Positions 14,350 to 32,421 are shown, numbered from the stretch's first letter. The stretch: 64,000 bases of DNA from Patescibacteria group bacterium (GCA_039188945.1 JBCCYW010000002.1:26449-90448); one strand, 5' to 3'. Program-made: numbers and translations. Notes: generated by a model not told the origin, from the sequence alone.

Positions 14350-15891
14350 ATGCCGAACCTCACCTATCTCTATAAATATTTCTTAATTACTGCAGTATTC
14401 GCACTCGCAGTCTACATCCTCTCGCCAGACAATAGTAGCGTATCGGAACCGTCGGAAAGCCCTAGTACGAATACTCCCCTGCCAACAGTGCAACTCCTCA
14501 CCGTACGCGATAGTAATGTTGCAGCTGACGCAGGTGGGCGACAACTTGAGGTGACAGGCACCATTGAGGCCGCGGCTGACGTTGATGTCTTACCTGAAGC
14601 AAGTGGTGTGATCAGTCGAGTGAGCGTGACCGAGGGTCAGGCGGTAACAGCTGGGCAAATCCTACTCGAGATAGAAAATACTGATGAGCGTATTGCGGTC
14701 GGTCAGGCACAGGCCCAACTCGAACAGCAACGAGTTGTACTAGCAGATTTAATCTCAGAAAGTGATACCAGTGGCAACTCGACCATTGCCTCGGTAGTAG
14801 AGCAGCAAGACGTCGCTATTGAAAATGCTTATGAAGCACTCCTCAACAACGACTTGCAAGCCTACCCCGACGATCCTGAAGATATCGACCACCCAAATCC
14901 CATCATATCTGGAACCTATTCGAGCACAGAAGAAGGGACATATATTATAGATGTCTATCGCTCGAGCAACGAGTCGGGCTACTCGTTTCGCCTTCGTGGC
15001 ATGGAATCAGGCACTTACCCAGTGTCATTTAACCAGCCAGTATCGTTTGGATCTCGAGGCCTCTTTATTAAGTTCACTCCAGACGAACTCGGCAATATGA
15101 AAGATGAGATCTGGAGAGTTACCATCCCTAATCAACGAAGCGCTAGCTATGTTGCCGCACTCACCAATTATGAAGCGGCGATTGAAGGTAAGGATGTAAC
15201 CGTTCGACAGACAGAAGTGAGCGAGGAAGACATTGCTCGACAACAAGCGATTGTTCGGCAGCAAGAACTCTCAGTGCAAGCAGCACAAAACGCCTTGCGT
15301 AAAACTATCGTTCGATCACCGATTAGTGGAACACTTACTTCATTTGATCTTGATATTGGAGATTTCGTAGCCACTGCCGCTGTCGCAACAGTAAAAAGTC
15401 TTGATCAATTGGAAGTCGTGACCAATGTAACTGAATTTGATCGTCTATTCGTCGCGGTTGGTAGCCCAGCTACCATTGCCGGCATTGCTGCCGGCGAAGT
15501 CATCTCGGTTGGAGCAGCCGCGAGTGAATTAACGCAAAAAGTGAAGGTGCGCATTGGTATAACTGACGCTGACCGGCAAACCTTTACCACCCTCTTCACT
15601 GAAGGCCAATCGGTACCTATCACACTCGAACGAACACCTAATGAGTCAATTTCACAAATCGAACGATTTGCTAACTTTGCGATTGTACCCCTCACGGCGA
15701 TTCAAATTATTGGCACAACACCAAGTGTCTTTGCCTTCAATCAAGCTGATAACACCGTGCGTACCGTACCAGTCGAGACAGGTCTACTCGTCGATGACTC
15801 AGTCTTAATTACAAGTGGTCTCGAAGCAGTTGACGCAGTAGTGGTTGACGGCCGAGGCCTGAGCGACGGTGAGATGGTGGTAGTCGAGTAG
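14350..15891 (+). CDS. Efflux RND periplasmic adaptor subunit (membrane fusion protein) with an extra inserted domain
   Basis: N-terminal TM, biotin-lipoyl-like hairpin (VLPEASGVISRVSVTEGQAVTAGQILLEIE), coiled coil and beta-barrel. A roughly 100-aa insertion is shared with the paralog at 30916-32421. Confidence 0.8.
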   Translation: MPNLTYLYKYFLITAVFALAVYILSPDNSSVSEPSESPSTNTPLPTVQLLTVRDSNVAADAGGRQLEVTGTIEAAADVDVLPEASGVISRVSVTEGQAVTAGQILLEIENTDERIAVGQAQAQLEQQRVVLADLISESDTSGNSTIASVVEQQDVAIENAYEALLNNDLQAYPDDPEDIDHPNPIISGTYSSTEEGTYIIDVYRSSNESGYSFRLRGMESGTYPVSFNQPVSFGSRGLFIKFTPDELGNMKDEIWRVTIPNQRSASYVAALTNYEAAIEGKDVTVRQTEVSEEDIARQQAIVRQQELSVQAAQNALRKTIVRSPISGTLTSFDLDIGDFVATAAVATVKSLDQLEVVTNVTEFDRLFVAVGSPATIAGIAAGEVISVGAAASELTQKVKVRIGITDADRQTFTTLFTEGQSVPITLERTPNESISQIERFANFAIVPLTAIQIIGTTPSVFAFNQADNTVRTVPVETGLLVDDSVLITSGLEAVDAVVVDGRGLSDGEMVVVE

Positions 15892-15895
15892 TCAT

Positions 15896-18800
15896 ATGCT
15901 TTTCTTAATTCAACGATCAGTATTTACCTATTTTGCACTCGTGTGTCTCCTCTTATACGGAGTATACAGTGTGATGATTATTGGTAAGGAATCTTCACCC
16001 GAAATCAATGTACCGATTGTCAGTGTAACAACAGTATTTCCTGGTGCTGCTGCCGCAGATGTCGAAGATCTCGTAACTGATGTTATTGAAGACGAGCTAC
16101 TACAAGCTCTAGACGATGTGGACACCATTGACTCCGTATCCTCACAGGGATTGTCAGTAATAACGGTCCACTTTGAATCGTATGTTGATCTTTCAACAGC
16201 AATACAAGATGTGAAAGATGAGGTTGATCTTATTGAAAGTGATTTACCTGACGATGCTGAAGATCCAATTGTCGACGAGGTGAATTATTCTGATGCGCCA
16301 GTCTATATTGTCTCGGTCTCGACAAGAAGCGCCCTCACTCAACTATCAGAGACCGTCGCACAAATTGAAGATCGACTGGATAGCATTCAGGGCGTATCTG
16401 AAGTAACTATTTCCGGACAGCCGGATCGACAGATTAATGTGATTGTGGGTACCGCTCAGATGGATCAGTTTAACCTCAATGCAAGTGATATCGTCGCTGC
16501 CCTCGACAGCGCCGACAGCTCACTTCCAGTGGGGTCGATTGTGCAATCAGGCACTGAATACAACATTACATTTGATGGCGAATTGAATAGTGTTGAACTT
16601 ATCGAGAATAGCGTTGTGGCAAGAACTCAGACCGGTCAGGCAATCTTTGTTCGAGATATTGCTAGAGTTGAAGATGGTCTAGCCGAGCGAGAATCATCTT
16701 CTCGACTCTCAGTTGCTGGCAGCGAACCACAACAAGCCATTACTTTCTCCATTAACAAGCAGTCGGGTTATGATGTCACGACACTAACCGCAGACGTACG
16801 CGCTGAACTGCTACTACTGGAAACTGAATTGGCTAGTGAACAGCTTGAATTTGTGACGCTGGAAGATGGTGGTGAAGACGTGACTGAGGACCTGATTGAC
16901 CTAGCTGTCACAGCAATGCAGACCATCACGCTTGTTTTTGTTGTTCTGCTGATTGGTCTTGGATCCCGGCAGGCGATACTGGCTGCTGCCGCAGTACCCA
17001 TTTCGTTTATTATTTCGTTTGTTGGCCTGTATTACACCGGCACAACCTTAAACTTTGTGAGTCTGTTTGCGCTCGTACTAGTAGTTGGGATGTTAGTAGA
17101 CTCAGCAGTGGTCATGGTTGAAGGGATGACAGGCGAACTCAAGAAAGGCCTGAAGGGGTATGACGCAGCCAAAAGCACTATTTCAATTTATTCTGCATCA
17201 GTCACCGCTGGAACGTTAACAACAATATCAATCTTTGCTCCGATGTTATTTCTATCGGGGGCAGTCGGCGAGTTCATCACCTCAATCCCAGCGACGGTGA
17301 TAGTGGTCATGACAGTATCGCTTATCATCGCCATCATATACATTCCTTTGTTTGGCATCTCTTTTCTTCGCATTACGCCAGTGATACCCGGCACGTTTGG
17401 AGAAAAACGTGAACAATTCGTAAAAGCGATGAATGCTTGGTATCGAGAAAAACTAGAATACATACTCGCTCATAATGCTGTCGCTAGAGGTTTTGTGGCA
17501 GTAATCATTCTCCTGTTTGTGGCGGCGATAAGTCTCGTGACTACTGGCGCTGTTAAAGTAATGTTCTTCCCTGAAGATGACTTTAGTCAGTTCAATGTCC
17601 AAGTCGACATGCCAACCGGAACCCTCTTGGAGCAAACAGAACGAGCTACCGAACCAGTTGAAACGATTATTCAATCTCATCCTCGAGTCACTGCTTTTGT
17701 TTCTGAAATTACCGCTGAGGAAGCCGATATTACTGTCGTGATTGATGACGAAACACTTGGTGACAGTGTAGTTCGAGAGTTACGCGCCACGATTGGTGAG
17801 CTTGCTTCCGTAGCGGACGTTACCGTGGTACCACCTGCTTCGGGCGTATCAACAGGAGCACCGTTTCAAGTGAAGTTTGTCGGCGACGATTTAGAAGCAC
17901 TCACCACTGTCGCCAACGAAGCAACTGCCTTAGTCAAGACAATCCCTGATACTTTTGATGTGACCAATAGTCTAGCCGGGGCGGGCATCGATATCATTCT
18001 CGAAGCTAATCGCGAAACAATTGAAGAGACAGGGATTACTGTCGACCAACTGGCTGGCACAGTGCGCTCAGCCTTATTTGGAGCAGATGCCTACTCATAC
18101 ACACATCCAAAAAGTAACGATGATGTCGATGTATCAGTACGCGTCGGCCTAAACGCAGAGACATTTGTCACCGATGACACTAATGCTATCACCATCGATA
18201 CATTACGTGGATTACCAATTACCACTCCAAATGGTACGGTGCTGCTCGGCTCACTTATTACCGAATCACTCGAAGCAAGTAACACATCAATCGAACATGA
18301 AGATGGCCAACGCGTAATTACCGTATCAAGCTACATTGCTGAAGATGTTGTGGTAAATGATATCAACGACCGTTACACAGCACTCGCTGCAGCGGCACTA
18401 ACGCTTCCTGACGGGGTCACCATGAAATTTGGTGGTGATACAGAAGACAGTGCTGATTCAACTGCTGATCTAGGTATTGCCTTATTGGTAGGCGTATTTC
18501 TAATCATGGTTGTGCTGGTTTTTCAGTTCAATTCAATAAAGAGCATGTTGTTTATTGTCAGTGTCATTCCTCTAGGACTCATTGGGGTACTATTTGGACT
18601 TGCCGCATTTGGCCAACCCCTATCATTCACCGGCATGCTCGGGTTTGTTGCTTTGGTTGGAATCGTCATCAATAACTCAATCATGCTGATCAGTTCAATG
18701 AATGATGCCAAGGCAACTGGTACGACATCACACCTTAACGTTGTACTCGACAGTTCGGTTGGTCGCTTACGACCAATCCTTCTCACAACAGCTACGACAG

Positions 18801-18943
18801 TGATCGGCATGATGCCACTCCTCAACTCTTCACCAATGTGGGCACCGCTCGCGCTTGCTATCATCTTTGGTCTTTTATTTGCGGTAGTACTAACCTTAGT
18901 GATGATTCCCATCTTTTACAACTGGTGGGCTACTCAGTCGTAG
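15896..18943 (+). CDS. RND efflux transporter permease (AcrB/AcrD/AcrF family)
   Basis: 1015 aa with 12 TM and two large periplasmic loops. Conserved TM4 region and C-terminal signature PLALAIIFGLLFAVVLTLVMIP. Confidence 0.9.
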   Translation: MLFLIQRSVFTYFALVCLLLYGVYSVMIIGKESSPEINVPIVSVTTVFPGAAAADVEDLVTDVIEDELLQALDDVDTIDSVSSQGLSVITVHFESYVDLSTAIQDVKDEVDLIESDLPDDAEDPIVDEVNYSDAPVYIVSVSTRSALTQLSETVAQIEDRLDSIQGVSEVTISGQPDRQINVIVGTAQMDQFNLNASDIVAALDSADSSLPVGSIVQSGTEYNITFDGELNSVELIENSVVARTQTGQAIFVRDIARVEDGLAERESSSRLSVAGSEPQQAITFSINKQSGYDVTTLTADVRAELLLLETELASEQLEFVTLEDGGEDVTEDLIDLAVTAMQTITLVFVVLLIGLGSRQAILAAAAVPISFIISFVGLYYTGTTLNFVSLFALVLVVGMLVDSAVVMVEGMTGELKKGLKGYDAAKSTISIYSASVTAGTLTTISIFAPMLFLSGAVGEFITSIPATVIVVMTVSLIIAIIYIPLFGISFLRITPVIPGTFGEKREQFVKAMNAWYREKLEYILAHNAVARGFVAVIILLFVAAISLVTTGAVKVMFFPEDDFSQFNVQVDMPTGTLLEQTERATEPVETIIQSHPRVTAFVSEITAEEADITVVIDDETLGDSVVRELRATIGELASVADVTVVPPASGVSTGAPFQVKFVGDDLEALTTVANEATALVKTIPDTFDVTNSLAGAGIDIILEANRETIEETGITVDQLAGTVRSALFGADAYSYTHPKSNDDVDVSVRVGLNAETFVTDDTNAITIDTLRGLPITTPNGTVLLGSLITESLEASNTSIEHEDGQRVITVSSYIAEDVVVNDINDRYTALAAAALTLPDGVTMKFGGDTEDSADSTADLGIALLVGVFLIMVVLVFQFNSIKSMLFIVSVIPLGLIGVLFGLAAFGQPLSFTGMLGFVALVGIVINNSIMLISSMNDAKATGTTSHLNVVLDSSVGRLRPILLTTATTVIGMMPLLNSSPMWAPLALAIIFGLLFAVVLTLVMIPIFYNWWATQS

Positions 18944-21127: not shown

Positions 21128-21487
21128 CTACTGTTTCTTGCAACACGTTCCGCGAACGGTCACTTCTAGTTCGCCGATTTCAAAACCATCGAGACCGAGC
21201 AACTCTTTAATCTTTTTATCCGGGGCATTAAAGTGCATTACTTTTTTACATTCACCACAAACCGCGTGGTGATGAGAAGCTGACTTTAGTTCGTATTGAG
21301 CCTCCTTACCGCCAAGCTGTAGTTTCTTCACCACGCCATCCTCGACAAACAACTCTAAGTTGCGATAGATTGTCGCCAAATCAATTTCGGGCAGTCGCTC
21401 ATGCAGCTGTGCCGCTGAAAGTGCGCAAATTTCTTGCTGCAGCAACGAAAGAATTTGTTCTCGCTTTTTACTATGTCGTCTAGTCAT
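21128..21487 (-). CDS. Fur-family metalloregulator (Zur/Nur-like by context)
   Basis: Fur signature HHHAVCGECKKV plus a C-terminal CC pair. Last gene of the COG0523 cluster. A 6-2-6 inverted repeat AAATACgtGTATTT lies at its start codon. Confidence 0.85.
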   Translation of the reverse strand: MTRRHSKKREQILSLLQQEICALSAAQLHERLPEIDLATIYRNLELFVEDGVVKKLQLGGKEAQYELKSASHHHAVCGECKKVMHFNAPDKKIKELLGLDGFEIGELEVTVRGTCCKKQ

Positions 21488-21559
21488 AAATACGTGTATT
21501 TAGTATGAAAATGGTCCGCCGCCAGCTAGGTACGGCGGACCGAGGATTTGTGTGGCAGC

Positions 21560-22360
21560 TTACTCTACAGCCACAAGCTCAGCTTCTTCGCCGAGCAGGA
21601 AGCGACGGGCTTCCTCGGCGTGATGACCGAAGTCACCAAGCTTACGTTGCGCCACGATAGCTTCGGTTGAAGCTTCCGTAAAACGCAGGTAGCTCTTCAC
21701 TTCTGCCGAACCAAAGTCGGCAGAAGCGGCGAGAATTGCCGGTGGCACATCCCGGACAGAAATTCCGTCCCAAAGTGAGTTGCCAACCGTCAACACGTCA
21801 GCGTCGAAGAATCGACCCTTGCTCTCGCGAGTGTTGTAGTAGTCAGACTCGAAGAGAACATCCAGATCGTCAGTGGCAACTGCGATCTTACAACAGCTGC
21901 AACCAGCAACTATCTGAATGCCAAACTCCTGATCCAGCAAACGGTTGAGTTTGCGCATGCCAGCAGTACGCAGCGCCAGTTTCTCCATCGGACCATGCAG
22001 CAGCTCGGTTTCGTGGGTTTTTACCCGCATTACCCGGTCATGCTTTTTGGACCAGAAGAGGATGGACAACGGGTTGGCCGCCAGCTTGAAGCCAACGCCT
22101 CGAATCTTCGAGAACGAGCCCTCGAGATAGCGCTGCGTCAGCTCCGCGACACCGGCAACCTCCAAGAGGCGCGGTTCATTGAGAAGATCGCCGATTTTGG
22201 CAATCAAAGACTCGCCGACAAGCGGGCAGTACTTAGCCAGTACCTTGGCGTCATTCGGGACATAGTAGCCCCAAATTGTACGTGTTCCGTCCTCGTTGAG
22301 GGCGGGATTGGCCTTGGCAGCCGGTTGCAGTCGGTCGTAGAAGTCACAGACTTCGCACAT
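21560..22360 (-). CDS. Hypothetical Cys-rich protein (266 aa), candidate client or partner of the adjacent metallochaperones
   Basis: N-terminal CEVC and internal GCSCC motifs. No family recognised. Followed by a 9-bp-stem hairpin at 21520-21548. Confidence 0.45.
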   Translation of the reverse strand: MCEVCDFYDRLQPAAKANPALNEDGTRTIWGYYVPNDAKVLAKYCPLVGESLIAKIGDLLNEPRLLEVAGVAELTQRYLEGSFSKIRGVGFKLAANPLSILFWSKKHDRVMRVKTHETELLHGPMEKLALRTAGMRKLNRLLDQEFGIQIVAGCSCCKIAVATDDLDVLFESDYYNTRESKGRFFDADVLTVGNSLWDGISVRDVPPAILAASADFGSAEVKSYLRFTEASTEAIVAQRKLGDFGHHAEEARRFLLGEEAELVAVE

Positions 22361-22463
22361 GGTTCACCTCACGGGTTTGATGGTTTGTTGGGTACGTGTT
22401 TTGACACTGTCATCAGTGTTGCAGGGGGCATTTCAAATGAAATAACCCCTGTGGCACCGACGA

Positions 22464-23312
22464 CTATACAGCTGCAAATTCCCGATTACGCTTGAACTTT
22501 TTTACAGTCCGTTCCAAGCGGTTATTCTTGTGAACCTCTATCGCCTTTGTAGAAATCATTTGCAATTCGTTGGCCCACTCCCCGACAACGGACGAAGGGT
22601 CTCGTTTAAGGCCAGTGCTTTCCATCAAAAACGCCGCTGGCTCAACTCCTAGTTTTGAATCAATGAAATCTTTATCTTCACTTGAAGTCACTTTATTCCC
22701 AACAAAAATGTACGGGGTTTCGTAGAAGTTCATCAACTCTGCGATCTGCTTGGCCGTCTTTACGCTATGAAGTGCTGGCTCACACACAATCACACCCACA
22801 TCGATACCAGTCACAATGCCAGTTGAAACACCGTCTGCACCAGCCTTTTCGTCTACGATCACAGTTTCGTTCTCCTGTAGCTCTAAGAGCGGTAGGAGGA
22901 TCTTAAGCGGAGTTGTGAGACTGTGACTGCAGTGCGTGCCATAGAGTACGCTATCTGTCTGAGGACCAGCAGCCATCAACCTAATACCATTTTCAAGCTC
23001 TCGAGAATAGTCTGCAATCTCATTTGATAGTGGTGACAAAGAAAAACGAGTATCTGTATTCTTAAGAAATGCCTGATCGTACTTCTCACCCTCTGAAAGT
23101 CCAGCCGCACTTTGCAGTGTGCTAAGGCTCTGACTAAAATACTTGAGCTCTAACAACTCGCCTGAGGTGAGGTTGTATGAAAGATCCATATTGTGATCAG
23201 CATCAATTGCCAGCACTGACTTTTTTTGGTCATTGAGAAAAAGCGCCATCTGTGTCGAAACAGATGATTTGCCACTTCCTCCTTTACCTAGAAATCCTAA
23301 AATCATAGTCAT
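22464..23312 (-). CDS. ParA/MinD/CooC-type P-loop ATPase (deviant Walker A)
   Basis: GFLGKGGSGKSSV matches the deviant Walker A KGGxGK[ST]. Size and context fit a CooC-like metallocentre-assembly ATPase. A Cys/His motif HCSH is present. Confidence 0.7.
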   Translation of the reverse strand: MTMILGFLGKGGSGKSSVSTQMALFLNDQKKSVLAIDADHNMDLSYNLTSGELLELKYFSQSLSTLQSAAGLSEGEKYDQAFLKNTDTRFSLSPLSNEIADYSRELENGIRLMAAGPQTDSVLYGTHCSHSLTTPLKILLPLLELQENETVIVDEKAGADGVSTGIVTGIDVGVIVCEPALHSVKTAKQIAELMNFYETPYIFVGNKVTSSEDKDFIDSKLGVEPAAFLMESTGLKRDPSSVVGEWANELQMISTKAIEVHKNNRLERTVKKFKRNREFAAV

Positions 23313-23315
23313 TCA

Positions 23316-24509
23316 CTACCACTCAGAAAACGGATCTTCAAACGTGCGCCACCCAGTTACCCCGAGCTGCCACTCTTCATCCGTCAGCAAACATTTGTTG
23401 AGACTTTCGGTAATTGCCTCTTTGTTCATATCAATGCCGATAAATACGAGTTCTTGGCGATGATCAAAGTACGGCGCTTGCCAATGTTTCTCAACTGCCT
23501 GTTGCTTGATCATGTCTGGCCATTGATTTGGGTCAATGATACCCCACCACCAACCAGCGGCGCGCAGCGACAGCAGTGTGCCAGCCAGCGAGAGATCACC
23601 GGCTTGCTCAAAGCGAGTCGCCAGCCAGAAGAGCCCCTTAGCCCGCACCACTGTCTTGGGAATACTTCCCGTCCACTCTTGAAAACGTTGTGGATGGAAC
23701 GGTCGATCAGCTTTGTAGACAAAACTATCAATACCGTACTCGAGCGTTTCTGGCACATGCTCGCCACGCAATTCCTTCAGCCACATCGGCGCGAGCGCCG
23801 CCTTTTCAAAATCAAATAGGCCAGTGTTCACGATCTTCTTGAGTGGCACCTCAGAATAATTAGTTTCGATGATCTCAGCGTCAGTATTGAGCGACTTAAT
23901 CACCCCAAGAATCTTCTGCTGTTCTGCTTCAGAAACATCAGCCACTTTGTTGAGAATAATGATGTTGGCAAACTCAATTTGATCAGTCAGGAGATTGACA
24001 ATATCTCGCTCGTCTTCTTCGCCGAGTGACTCACCTCGCTCTTGTAAGGTCTCGCGTGAGTTCCAGTTCTCCAAAAAATTCACGGCATCTACCACTGTCA
24101 CCATGGTGTCTAGCTTGGCAAAGTCTTTGAGAATATCACCGCTCTCATCATCAAACGTGAAGGTTTCTGCCACCTGCATTGGCTCACCAATTCCGGTTGA
24201 TTCAATAATCAAGTAATCAAACTTACCTTCCTGCGCAAGACGCTTTACCTCAATCAAAAGATCTTCGCGAAGTGTGCAACAAATACAGCCATTGCTCATC
24301 TCTACCAACTTTTCTTCAGTTCGGCTGAGCTCAGCGTCACCGCGTGCCACGATATCAGCGTCGATGTTGACCTCAGACATGTCGTTTACGATGACAGCTA
24401 CCTTAAGACCTTCGCGATTACGAAGGATGTGATTGAGTAAGGTCGTTTTACCACTACCGAGAAAGCCTGAGAGAACGGTTACTGGTAGTCGAGAATCGTT
24501 TGTTTCCAT
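23316..24509 (-). CDS. COG0523-family G3E GTPase (CobW/YciC/ZigA-like metallochaperone)
   Basis: P-loop GFLGSGKTT, metal-binding [10 protein letters not shown] (CxCC), and the C-terminal CobW_C-like domain. Confidence 0.85.
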
Positions 24510-24555
24510 AGTTCAAAATATACGTGAGCCAAAATAATACCGCACCCCAGTAATA

Positions 24556-24571
24556 TTGCAAATCATTTGCA
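24556..24571. promoter_or_regulatory. Candidate Fur/Zur-family operator upstream of the COG0523 operon
   Basis: TTGCAAATcATTTGCA, a 7-1-7 palindrome of the AT-rich ATcAT-centred type. It lies 47 nt upstream of the COG0523 start, in the divergent region shared with the 24610 gene. Confidence 0.4.
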
Positions 24572-24609
24572 TTTAGAAACACCTGGCTAAGTTCTTCCTT
24601 TTTGCTATA

Positions 24610-25203
24610 GTGCGAGTAATGAATGAACATATTAAATTAGCGCTGGCGTTTGGAGCTGGCGTCGTGCTCACCCTGGTTTTTCTTTCCCTTACCAAAAGTG
24701 CCGAGGCACCATCTGAAGTAGATATTATTGAAGTAACCCAGACTGAAGAAGCTGATAGTGCAACAACATCTAATGAGGACGCTGCAGAGACAACCCAACA
24801 AAGTCCTACAGCCTTATCACCTACCCCAGCTCCTGTAGCTGCACCACCAGTAGTACAAGAAACCTATCCCACCAGTGCTTTAGTGCGTTTTACCGGACGG
24901 CAGTTTGAACCTGAGACCGTGCTCATTGTTGAAGGTGGGCGGGTGACCTTTCAAAACACCAGCGATGACGATTTGATGCATATTATTAGTGGTCCAATTC
25001 CTCGTTATGATGCCTATCCAGGCAACGGCCGCCCCGGCTGCGCCCCAACCTTGTTTGATCAGTGTAATTCAGTAGCTCCAGGTGGCACGTGGAGCTTTAC
25101 CTTTGATGAACTTGGTGGTTGGACCTACTACAACAAAGAGGATCAGGTGTTCTCAGGGCGAGTCCGTGTTCTCACTCGCGAGCAATTCGATAATGAGTTT
25201 TAG
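24610..25203 (+). CDS. Hypothetical secreted/membrane-anchored protein
   Basis: Signal/anchor sequence, Thr/Pro/Ala-rich linker, and a C-terminal globular domain with 2 Cys. A terminator hairpin follows. Confidence 0.5.
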   Translation: MRVMNEHIKLALAFGAGVVLTLVFLSLTKSAEAPSEVDIIEVTQTEEADSATTSNEDAAETTQQSPTALSPTPAPVAAPPVVQETYPTSALVRFTGRQFEPETVLIVEGGRVTFQNTSDDDLMHIISGPIPRYDAYPGNGRPGCAPTLFDQCNSVAPGGTWSFTFDELGGWTYYNKEDQVFSGRVRVLTREQFDNEF

Positions 25204-30915: not shown

Positions 30916-32421
30916 ATGCGGATCCTTCTCAGCGGAAAATCATATTACGTCGTTGGTGCAGTTATTTTAATTGCAGTGGCTTTGGTAATGCTCTTCTCAT
31001 TAAGTAGTCGGAAGGGCGAAGAAATCGTCACCACTACCGTAGACCAAGGTGAAGTACTACAACTCGTATCAGTATCGGGTGTGGTAGAAGCTGAAAATAC
31101 GGCCGAACTAGCCTTCCCCGTGACTGGTATCGCTCGCGAAATCAATGTCCGTGAAGGTGATTTTGTGCAAGAAGGCGAAGTAATGGCCACCATTGAGCAG
31201 AGCACACTCCTAGCCGATCGGAAAGACGCTCTGGCTGCCCTTGGTTCAGCGCGGGCTGACCGTGACGAACTCATAAGTGGACCGCGCGACGAGCAGCGAG
31301 CCGTCACCAATCAAAATATTCTTATTCGAGAAAATGAACTCGAACAAACCATAACTGAAGAAGAGCAAAAAGTAGCTAACGCCCGCCGTACCTTCCTCTC
31401 ATCTAATCTCCAAGCCCGTTCGCTCGATCCAGAAGAAACCGCTACTGCGCCAACCGTGAGCGGCAGCTATAACTGTGATCAAGCGGGTGAATACATCCTG
31501 GATGCATTTTCTTCAGATGCTGAGTCTGGCTTTTCTTTCCGGCTGTCAGGACTTGGGGGCGGTACGTACCCAGCAACTACTGATCAAGCGAGCTTGTTTG
31601 GCAGCTGCGGTCTCAAACTACAATTCACGAGCGGTGATCGCTACTCAAATTCAGATTGGATTATCGAAATTCCTAATACAAAATCACCCAACTACATCGC
31701 TACTCTGAACGCTTTAGAGCTCGCCGAAGACCAAGCTACCAACAACATCCGTGACGCTGAAGAGGCTCTTAGCCTGGCTCTGCAGGAGCAGACCCTTGAA
31801 AATGCCGACCCCCGCAGTGAAGCCTTAGCGCGAGCAAATGCAGCGGTTGCCCAGGCAGAGGCTCGACTTGAACGGGTGAACGCTGAAATCGAAGACCGCA
31901 CCCTACGAGCCCCGTTTGCTGGCACGGTAACAAACGTTGATATTTTGGCTGGCGAAACAGTAAGTACCAACCCGGTCATTACACTCCTGGCTGATGACGT
32001 GTTTGAAATGACCGCGCGAATTCCAGAAATTGATATTACGAAAGTCTCAGTCGACCAACCAGCCGAGATCGTGTTTGACGCGCGAACAGAGGAGGTGCTC
32101 CCCGCACACATTAGTTTTATTTCACCCCTAGCAACCGAGATCGATGGAGTCGCTTACTACGAAGCAAAACTACAATTTGATGAACCACCGTCTTGGCTGC
32201 GCAGTGGCCTCAACGCAGATATTGATATTATTGTCGAAGAGCGCGTGAACGTAACCCGGTTGCCAAAGCGATTTGTGATTGAAGACAATGGCGTGTACTC
32301 AGTCATGGTGATGCAGGGCGAAACTAAGGCCTCTACAACTGTTGAAGTTGGAGTTGTCGGTAATGACGGCTATATCGAAGTTATCGGACTAAACGTTGGC
32401 GACATTATCGTCGCCCCGTAG
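30916..32421 (+). CDS. Periplasmic adaptor subunit (HlyD/MFP family) of an ABC-type efflux system
   Basis: N-terminal TM, biotin-lipoyl-like hairpin, long coiled coil and beta-barrel. Paralogous to 14350-15891 and carries the same inserted domain. Confidence 0.75.
   Translation: MRILLSGKSYYVVGAVILIAVALVMLFSLSSRKGEEIVTTTVDQGEVLQLVSVSGVVEAENTAELAFPVTGIAREINVREGDFVQEGEVMATIEQSTLLADRKDALAALGSARADRDELISGPRDEQRAVTNQNILIRENELEQTITEEEQKVANARRTFLSSNLQARSLDPEETATAPTVSGSYNCDQAGEYILDAFSSDAESGFSFRLSGLGGGTYPATTDQASLFGSCGLKLQFTSGDRYSNSDWIIEIPNTKSPNYIATLNALELAEDQATNNIRDAEEALSLALQEQTLENADPRSEALARANAAVAQAEARLERVNAEIEDRTLRAPFAGTVTNVDILAGETVSTNPVITLLADDVFEMTARIPEIDITKVSVDQPAEIVFDARTEEVLPAHISFISPLATEIDGVAYYEAKLQFDEPPSWLRSGLNADIDIIVEERVNVTRLPKRFVIEDNGVYSVMVMQGETKASTTVEVGVVGNDGYIEVIGLNVGDIIVAP

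Follow-up and report, generated by a model that had tools for sequence, protein, structure and literature searches.

The window analysed here is a stretch of 64,000 nucleotides (nt) from a metagenome-assembled genome of the Patescibacteria, or Candidate Phyla Radiation (CPR) (GCA_039188945.1, JBCCYW010000002.1:26449-90448), in which positions 21128-24609 hold an operon of four open reading frames (ORFs), all on the minus strand, together with its candidate operator. In the direction of transcription these encode a ZigA-type G3E GTPase of the COG0523 family (397 amino acids (aa); 23316-24509), a CooC-like P-loop ATPase (ORF 22464-23312), an orphan cysteine-rich protein of 266 aa (21560-22360), which we call U266, and a Fur-family repressor of 119 aa, probably Zur (21128-21487). 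The genes had been proposed by an earlier reading of the window from its sequence alone (the sequence-only reading), and all four ORFs were found where it had placed them. Since the homologues of the ATPase begin with MILGF, translation probably sets in at its second ATG (23306), which gives a protein of 280 aa (22464-23306). NCBI, where the contig measures 104 kilobases (kb), labels the products (MEM9336390-93) 'transcriptional repressor', 'hypothetical protein', 'AAA family ATPase' and 'zinc metallochaperone GTPase ZigA'.

The family assignments made in that reading held. The GTPase, described there as a G3E protein with a CxCC motif, matched the Pfam domains cobW (2.3e-55) and CobW_C (4.1e-23), contains the motif (GCICCT) and scored 602.2 bits against the NCBIfam ZigA model (NF038288), barely passing the cutoff of 600; both domains, the motif and the model score, which together mark a COG0523/ZigA protein, were therefore found, and its best sequence match in the PDB was YjiA. 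The ATPase, said to be MinD-like with a deviant Walker A motif, carries GKGGSGKS and has CooC1 as its best match in both sequence and fold. The regulator matched PF01475 (FUR) at 7.9e-20 (71.6 bits, cutoff 23.1), and with the stretch SHHHAVCGEC, which contains an HHH-x2-CxxC motif, and a C-terminal CC it belongs to the Fur family. U266 contains both motifs that had been noted in it, CEVC (residues 2-5) and CSCC (residues 154-157), and as described below it joined no recognisable family.

Upstream of the first gene lies the first of three palindromes that had been put forward as operators. All three are exact (24557-24571, 21488-21501 and 22430-22443), and the first, ATGCAAnTnAnTTGCAT, is a 7-1-7 box of the Fur type, forming the core of the site TATTGCAAATCATTTGCATTT at 24554-24574. 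Taken bare, the palindromes are unremarkable against chance: the window holds five perfect 7-1-7 palindromes (4.0 ± 2.0 in simulations) and 29 perfect 6-2-6 palindromes (17 ± 4 in simulations), and within it none of the three recurred more often than expected in any pattern pointing to other metal genes. Their significance thus comes only from the comparison across genomes, for which we used 15 genome loci (from Moranbacteria, Paceibacteria, Kaiserbacteria, Saccharibacteria and Magasanikbacteria), 23 metagenome loci and several contigs obtained via exact protein look-up, all given below by L numbers; the metagenome-assembled genomes of L009, L012 and L015 are examples of Saccharibacteria with the module. 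The anatomy of each locus was read by BLAST of its ORFs against the window's proteins.

In every locus with upstream sequence, the consensus ATGCAA(A/C)TnA(T/G)TTGCAT immediately precedes the leading gene of the module. With a weight matrix trained on 18 orthologous sites, the window site scored 30.1 and was the sole site of at least 14 in the 64 kb, and across some 400 kb of related loci all matches of at least 17 fell inside the module, except for one weak in-gene match each in L003 and L009. About 35 related loci carry the box ahead of the module, many of them as two copies 38-40 base pairs apart, and it was present as well in loci on which the matrix had not been trained (L013, L016, L017, L018, L020, L022, L024-L030, L047 and L049-L051). 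Two of the loci with remote homologues have it, L022 and, at the start of fur, L047. Nearly all the sites precede a gene of the module, that is, a gene for COG0523, the ATPase, U266, a 107-aa protein or a ZIP transporter, or fur itself. In the window, a predicted sigma-70-like promoter of the operon (TTGCAA, a 16-nt spacer and TATTAT; 24534-24562, minus strand; nine of 12 positions in a consensus scan) has its -35 hexamer inside the box. The conservation of the box across loci is strong evidence that TTGCAAATcATTTGCA is a Fur-family operator kept across genomes, through which the operon would be repressed. Recurrence at other metal genes, for which the sequence-only reading had asked, was seen for the box of the first palindrome in the related loci, where it fronts ZIP, Znu-like and COG0523 genes; within the window the palindromes recur at chance level.

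The core kept across the loci is the regulator, the CooC-like ATPase and the U266 protein, with COG0523 as an optional, accessory member. In the commonest arrangement (type A), seen in about 27 distinct loci, the ATPase gene adjoins a gene of the U266 family. Both orders occur: the ATPase mostly comes first, with a spacer of 80-113 nt, and in some loci it is downstream or convergent. The module also has a neighbouring Fur-family gene in about 27 loci, which is divergent upstream or, as in the window, co-oriented downstream; the regulators form two subgroups. COG0523 was found in only about seven of some 40 loci (the window, L007, L020, L024, L029, L050 and L051). The sequence-only reading had suggested that U266 may be matured by two chaperones; of these the ATPase proved to be the constant partner, and since COG0523 is so seldom there, U266 is not obligatorily served by both. 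The pairing of the ATPase with its partner persists at about 20% identity, as seen for P0051 in L022, for P0053 in L047 (in the order Fur, ATPase, partner), and in L050 and L051, whose partners were linked to the U266 family by hhalign with 97.7% and 98.6% probability. Each of the remote relatives with enough flanking sequence stands beside an ATPase, and mostly also beside a Fur gene and a box.

In about nine loci (type B; L010, L011, L013, L017, L033 and others) there is no ATPase, and the U266 homologue lacks the N-terminal MCxxC. Its neighbours are instead a 107-aa Cys/His protein (HRCDPSVCEYGDHVHVG) and a membrane protein of about 126 aa with a CxxC motif (PLDCSFCFPMW; weak DUF1360 match, E 0.049), and the order is a divergent Fur gene, the box, the 107-aa protein, the U266 homologue and the membrane protein (L010 7609-9202, L011 7646-9242, L013 7653-9211, L017 7657-9226 and L033 5608-7222). 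A similar small membrane protein is encoded between the U266 gene and the ATPase gene in L016 and L018. In the window, neither the 107-aa Cys/His protein nor the small CxxC membrane protein was found. Two further loci are of their own kind. In L049 (4001-5357) an ATPase homologue of 73% identity, which has a hairpin leader and lies 10 nt downstream of a box, is followed, with no U266 relative there, by a 138-aa protein that starts with MQCE and contains VCCSGC; hhalign gave no link between this protein and the U266 family, and the pair may represent a third kind of partnership. In L022 (556-8848) the remote partner P0051 and its ATPase, with two boxes, sit in a context unlike that of all other loci, flanked by a flavin-monooxygenase-like gene (Pyr_redox_3) and by two small ORFs followed by a MacAB-like ATP-binding cassette (ABC) exporter.

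In Pfam and NCBIfam the ATPase gave weak matches to CbiA and ParA P-loops only. Its best sequence match in the PDB was CooC1 (3kje; E 3.3e-7, residues 5-219), the other ATPases there matching by sequence at the P-loop only. In this alignment the Cys-x-Cys of CooC falls on H-C-S-H of the query (CSH), and Cys126-x-His128 (numbering of the 280-aa protein) is invariant in 16 locus orthologues, one of them 33% identical, and in 25 database homologues. The sequence DADHNMD is invariant across the same proteins except in the most divergent, that of L012 (DSDINQH), and remote loci also keep Cys-x-His (L047, CAHGH; L048, CSH). Searched with Foldseek, the AlphaFold model of the ATPase (pLDDT 89.6) had CooC1 as its top PDB match (E 1.2e-10, TM 0.63/0.69), followed by ParA, BchL, MinD, NifH, FlhG and the ATPase-type HypB. 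The family comprises 988 sequence clusters at E <= 1e-5, which makes the system a widespread one, and JGI often names its members 'CO dehydrogenase maturation factor'; genes for carbon monoxide dehydrogenase/acetyl-CoA synthase (CODH/ACS) were recorded in none of the loci with annotated neighbours, which are genes of the U266 family and those for Fur, COG0523 and ZIP or Znu proteins. Of the features by which a CooC is recognised, the fold and the deviant Walker A motif were found, and the CxC site and the CODH/ACS context were not. The ATPase is therefore CooC-like in fold and probably in principle, and is no CooC by motif or context.

U266 has 41 close homologues (40-58% identity), all from Patescibacteria where a source is named. 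No match to it was found in Pfam, NCBIfam or PADLOC, or in the PDB by sequence profile; a HMMER search over 1.84 billion protein representatives returned 18 cluster representatives, all of its own family, and an iterated profile search that included the remote relatives reached nothing outside that family. The AlphaFold model is of high quality (pLDDT 92.1, pTM 0.89), and its best Foldseek matches were at E 1.0 (TM 0.16) in the PDB and E 0.15 in BFVD. A match to a well-known family unrelated to metals, the outcome that the sequence-only reading had set against itself, therefore appeared in none of the sequence, profile and Foldseek searches. The marked features of U266 are the N-terminal MCxxC, His122, and G-C154-S-C156-C157 at the turn of a predicted beta-hairpin. 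Across the extended family R77, R112, H122, C156, E220 and R226 are invariant and C154 is nearly so. The remote relatives, found by profile comparison (P0051-P0056 and the partners in L050 and L051, of 231 and 244 aa), keep the N-terminal MC, His122 and C-x-C(C/G). The terminal cysteine motif is movable: most members have it as the N-terminal MCxxC and P0040-P0043 as a C-terminal C-x6-7-HC tail, and in type B loci it is gone from the U266 homologue and the separate 107-aa Cys/His protein stands alongside.

Between the ATPase and U266 genes lies an intercistronic RNA (22358-22466, minus strand) that, judging from its folding and covariation, is a structured and conserved element. Specifically, a long hairpin starts from the ATPase stop codon (22409-22464), an alternative short hairpin (22404-22419) competes with its base, and 3' of the two comes the leader that carries the Shine-Dalgarno sequence for U266. 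The folding z-score was -3.8 in the window and between -2.9 and -7.0 in eight of the 10 loci tested, and all 17 folded loci with the order ATPase then partner showed a hairpin at this junction, with differing sequences. RNAalifold on eight sequences gave 25 pairs, with 93.2% of cells paired and 10 of the 25 pairs compensatory; on 12 sequences the values were 92.5% and 14 of 24, a level reached by none of 500 shuffles, while slid controls had 29-50%. A covariance model built from the eight sequences matched only the ATPase/U266 junction in 472 kb and added L030, L031, L050 and L051 as new members (copies include L001 7892-8003, L005 883-986, L020 5898-6003, L050 4841-4937 and L047 5903-6003). 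Ahead of the Shine-Dalgarno sequence the conserved RNA has GUUCUU(U)/AACC elements, of which GUUCUU(U) is present in most loci, though absent in the window. Rfam 15 contained no matching family, the only matches being chance miRNA-like ones (E >1, far below gathering scores). The palindrome at 22430-22443, one of the three proposed operators, forms the apex of the long hairpin, and since pairing is conserved and covarying there and sequence is not, we rejected it as an operator. When the first 14 nt were blocked, as by a ribosome at the ATPase stop codon, the short hairpin could form in many loci; a remodelling of the hairpins by the ribosome that exposes the Shine-Dalgarno sequence of U266 was not supported by folding alone, the predicted changes in Shine-Dalgarno pairing being inconsistent. 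The plus strand carries a 166-aa ORF (21995-22495) antisense to the U266 gene and the intergenic RNA, which is probably a shadow ORF and no gene.

The remaining palindrome, the 6-2-6 repeat AAATACacGTATTT at 21488-21501, abuts the fur ATG, and the sequence-only reading had taken it for an operator by which fur regulates itself. It was absent in L020 (which has GATACTATAGAACT), L029, L007 and L004; missing from the closest relatives, it is unsupported as an operator, and so is direct autoregulation of fur in the window. What is kept there is a terminator and a -10-like element. The former is a terminator-like GC hairpin (GGTCCGCCG...CGGCGGACC) followed by ATTTTCA (21506-21541, minus strand), read from the sequence between the U266 gene and fur, which a simple terminator scan did not call; an equivalent GC hairpin and T-run occur in L004-L007, L009, L020, L029, L041, L042 and L050. 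The latter is CATACT at 21502-21507, making with the palindrome a unit at 21488-21507 (minus strand); among the 10 other loci with fur directly after the U266 gene, most have (T/G/C)ATACT or TACACT 7-15 nt before the fur ATG, and two have TATAGT or TATTAT instead (for example, L020 6802-6881, L005 1776-1856, L029 5819-5900 and L050 5628-5698). Since there is a terminator hairpin, a -10-like element near the ATG and no Shine-Dalgarno sequence, the arrangement suggests that fur has its own, possibly leaderless or short-leader, transcript. An arrangement fit for direct autoregulation was confined to loci in which fur diverges from the box or carries one of its own (as in L006).

The genes that share the box in related loci are what point to a metal. 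L011 has a second box before a ZIP transporter gene (PF02535, 8e-21; best NCBIfam match ZupT); in L004 and L025 a divergent ZIP gene is separated from the ATPase by two boxes; and in L051 the box separates ZIP and COG0523 on one side from the ATPase, partner and Fur genes on the other. L050 has two boxes with a ZnuA/ABC/ABC-3 transporter on one side and the genes for COG0523, the ATPase, the partner and Fur on the other; the binding protein of this transporter scored best against the AdcA, MntC, AztC and ZnuA models, though it passed none of the cutoffs. The box also precedes the COG0523 gene in all seven loci named above for that protein. An operator before zinc-uptake and zinc-chaperone genes, as in a Zur regulon, was thus found in related loci, and since one and the same box fronts ZIP/ZupT-like, ZnuABC-like and COG0523 genes, the regulator is most likely Zur. 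From this gene context we hold zinc to be the metal with fairly good confidence. Of the two metals on which the sequence-only reading had thought U266 might depend, zinc is therefore favoured, by the ZIP, Znu-like and ZigA-like genes under the box, and nickel is not.

On balance, then, we favour reading the operon as a local metal-starvation regulon, most likely for zinc and under Zur, in which the CooC-like ATPase and U266 form a pair that handles the metal. When metal is plentiful, the Fur-family repressor would bind the 7-1-7 box at 24554-24574 and, because the box overlaps the -35 hexamer of the promoter, silence the operon. When metal is scarce, the operon would be transcribed and yield the ZigA-type GTPase, the ATPase and U266. 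The ATPase and U266 would work as an obligate pair: in analogy to CooC and the ATPase-type HypB, the ATPase may dimerise on ATP and hold a metal ion at the dimer interface through Cys-x-His, and from the same analogy we infer an ATP-driven transfer of metal between the two proteins, in which the Cys/His site of U266 (MCxxC arm, His122 and CxC(C) knuckle) could be donor or acceptor. U266 would be either the final metalloprotein or a co-chaperone, COG0523 a parallel and optional chaperone, and the intercistronic RNA may add a post-transcriptional layer.

Several findings weigh against this interpretation. Gene context is the whole basis of the zinc assignment, and the regulator failed the Zur equivalog model (NF008646; 23.8 bits, cutoff 167), against which the PerR and Fur models scored higher, all of them below their cutoffs. 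ZIP transporters can carry other metals, and since the zinc and manganese types of model scored about equally, and below cutoff, for the ZnuA-like binding protein of L050, manganese is possible for that gene. Neither a ZIP gene nor a Znu gene was found in the window itself. Finally, the partner has diverged to about 22% identity where the ATPase keeps 64-66%, which is unusual for a conserved enzyme.

These points leave some room for a regulator that senses iron, manganese or peroxide in the manner of Fur or PerR, with a pair that builds or repairs an iron or iron-sulfur centre and a cluster bound by the four conserved cysteines of U266, an explanation we consider unlikely. The best matches of the regulator among the hidden Markov models were indeed PerR and Fur, and in the PDB its best match was Bacillus subtilis PerR, then Fur and Zur structures; the fold class of the ATPase includes NifH, BchL and Mrp-type iron-sulfur proteins; CxxC and CxC(C) motifs could ligate a cluster; and the ZIP and ZnuA-family transporters are not strictly zinc-specific. 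However, three zinc-associated types of protein lie under the box (ZigA-type COG0523, ZupT-like ZIP, and AdcA/AztC/ZnuA-like binding proteins), no gene for ferritin, Feo, Suf, catalase or peroxidase was seen adjoining a box in any locus, and the ATPase has Cys-x-His instead of the cluster-ligand pattern of NifH and Mrp.

A second explanation, which we also think improbable, accepts Zur and makes U266 a zinc-independent ('metal-sparing') isozyme that stands in for an essential zinc enzyme, and into which the ATPase would load another metal such as nickel, cobalt or iron. Zur regulons typically hold such zinc-free paralogues. In addition, the long subfamily of U266 has about 37 invariant and mostly polar residues, and CooC-class ATPases are known only as nickel insertases (PMC9164220). 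Against it, the short subfamily, whose ATPase stays about 65% identical, has lost the majority of these invariant polar residues, and U266 has no likeness in sequence or fold to any enzyme family, so that the metal-sparing paralog suggested in the sequence-only reading found no support. The Cys/His ligands and the movable cysteine arm fit metal handling better, and since these come together with fast divergence, the family features favour a metal-handling partner, whether a client with a simple site or a co-chaperone, over a classical enzyme. Least probable is that the ATPase is a positioning or partition ATPase with U266 as its adaptor and an incidental link to the Fur box, since, for all that its Pfam and NCBIfam matches are ParA, MinD and CbiA P-loops, that ParA and MinD structures rank just under CooC in the fold search and that adaptors of ParA systems evolve fast, like U266, CooC alone matches the whole domain by sequence, box, regulator and pair stay together in about 35 loci across deep divergence, and neither Cys-x-His nor the Cys/His residues of the partner have a role in positioning systems.

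We can also tentatively extend the zinc-regulon interpretation into a bolder and decidedly less certain proposal, in which a zinc-starvation metallochaperone of the ATPase type, made up of the Cys-x-His ATPase and a Cys/His protein of new fold, would be lineage-wide in the Patescibacteria, with a cis-regulatory RNA of its own that sets the ratio or timing of the two. If true, this would be the first zinc-trafficking machine of the ATPase type, as against the GTPase type of COG0523.

Divergent from the operon and starting only 36 nt from the operator is a plus-strand gene for a 197-aa protein with an N-terminal membrane anchor (24610-25203), which may be co-regulated because of this distance; its membership in the module is uncertain, as it had no match in Pfam, NCBIfam, PADLOC or the PDB and no counterpart was seen beside the module in the contexts of the other loci. 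The other neighbours of the operon are mostly ordinary and include a potassium channel, CIA30, a short-chain dehydrogenase/reductase, malic enzyme, acyl carrier protein and RecG. An HlyD-type adaptor and an AcrB-type resistance-nodulation-division transporter lie within 14350-18943 (plus strand), and a second HlyD-type gene at 30916-32421 (plus strand). The segment 40001-46000 has a GC content of about 0.40, compared with about 0.47 in the rest of the window, and may have been horizontally acquired. PADLOC placed nothing here in an anti-phage defence system.

The Patescibacteria make up a large part of uncultivated bacterial diversity and have tiny genomes with almost no experimentally defined regulons, and the module offers them a testable metal regulon, complete with operator, repressor and target genes. 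It would tie a CooC-class ATPase, of a class listed for nickel only (PMC9164220), to homeostasis of the zinc type, and the metal centre of the pair could reveal a new class of metalloprotein or a route of zinc allocation in minimal cells. The covarying RNA is a candidate regulatory element in a group without characterised ones.

Several parts of the module can be set beside known systems, from which they depart. The Bacillus-type boxes of Fur, PerR and Zur are 7-1-7 inverted repeats (TGATAATnATTATCA, TTATAATnATTATAA and TCGTAATnATTACGA) with an AATnATT centre. The operator shares the 7-1-7 architecture and this centre, and differs in its outer positions, TGCA/TGCA (TGCAAATnATTTGCA), which make it a variant peculiar to these loci of the Patescibacteria.

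CooC is the ATP-dependent nickel-insertion factor of carbon monoxide dehydrogenase. Like CooC1 of Carboxydothermus hydrogenoformans (3kje), the ATPase has a deviant Walker A motif with the signature lysine, a metal-ligand motif at the position of CooC's CxC, and a gene beside that of a specific partner protein. In contrast to CooC, its motif is Cys-x-His rather than Cys-x-Cys, its loci lack CODH/ACS and pair it with an orphan protein, and it stands under a Fur-family box alongside zinc-uptake genes; P-loop ATPase metallochaperones have been described for nickel only (PMC9164220). The ATPase-type HypB of Thermococcus kodakarensis (5auq), a MinD-class ATPase among the top fold matches, is a second point of comparison. 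HypA, the small partner of HypB, has a metal motif from residue 2 and a cysteine zinc knuckle. MCxxC and CxC(C) in U266 resemble these by analogy, although U266 is no HypA homologue and hydrogenase genes are absent.

Zur regulons with COG0523 metallochaperones have been described for ZigA (Acinetobacter), ZagA/YciC (Bacillus) and, in eukaryotes, Zng1 (Haas et al. 2009, PMC2770081). The module has in common with them a Fur-family repressor, an operator that is palindromic and overlaps the promoter, a ZigA-type COG0523 protein and, in related loci, ZIP/Znu-type importers under the same box. Our literature search found Zur regulons, COG0523 and CooC treated separately and no account of this module or of any metal regulon in the Patescibacteria, in keeping with the sequence-only reading, which had called the combination undescribed. 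The module departs from the known regulons in that COG0523 is optional and the regulator fails the Zur equivalog model, and above all in its constant members: no report of a CooC-class ATPase or of the orphan protein in those regulons was found in the papers searched. As a metallochaperone module of nucleoside triphosphatases under predicted Fur/Zur control, it appears to add three new parts to what is known: a subtype of ATPase, an orphan partner for whose predicted fold Foldseek gave no match in the PDB or BFVD, and, lying between their genes, a structured RNA.

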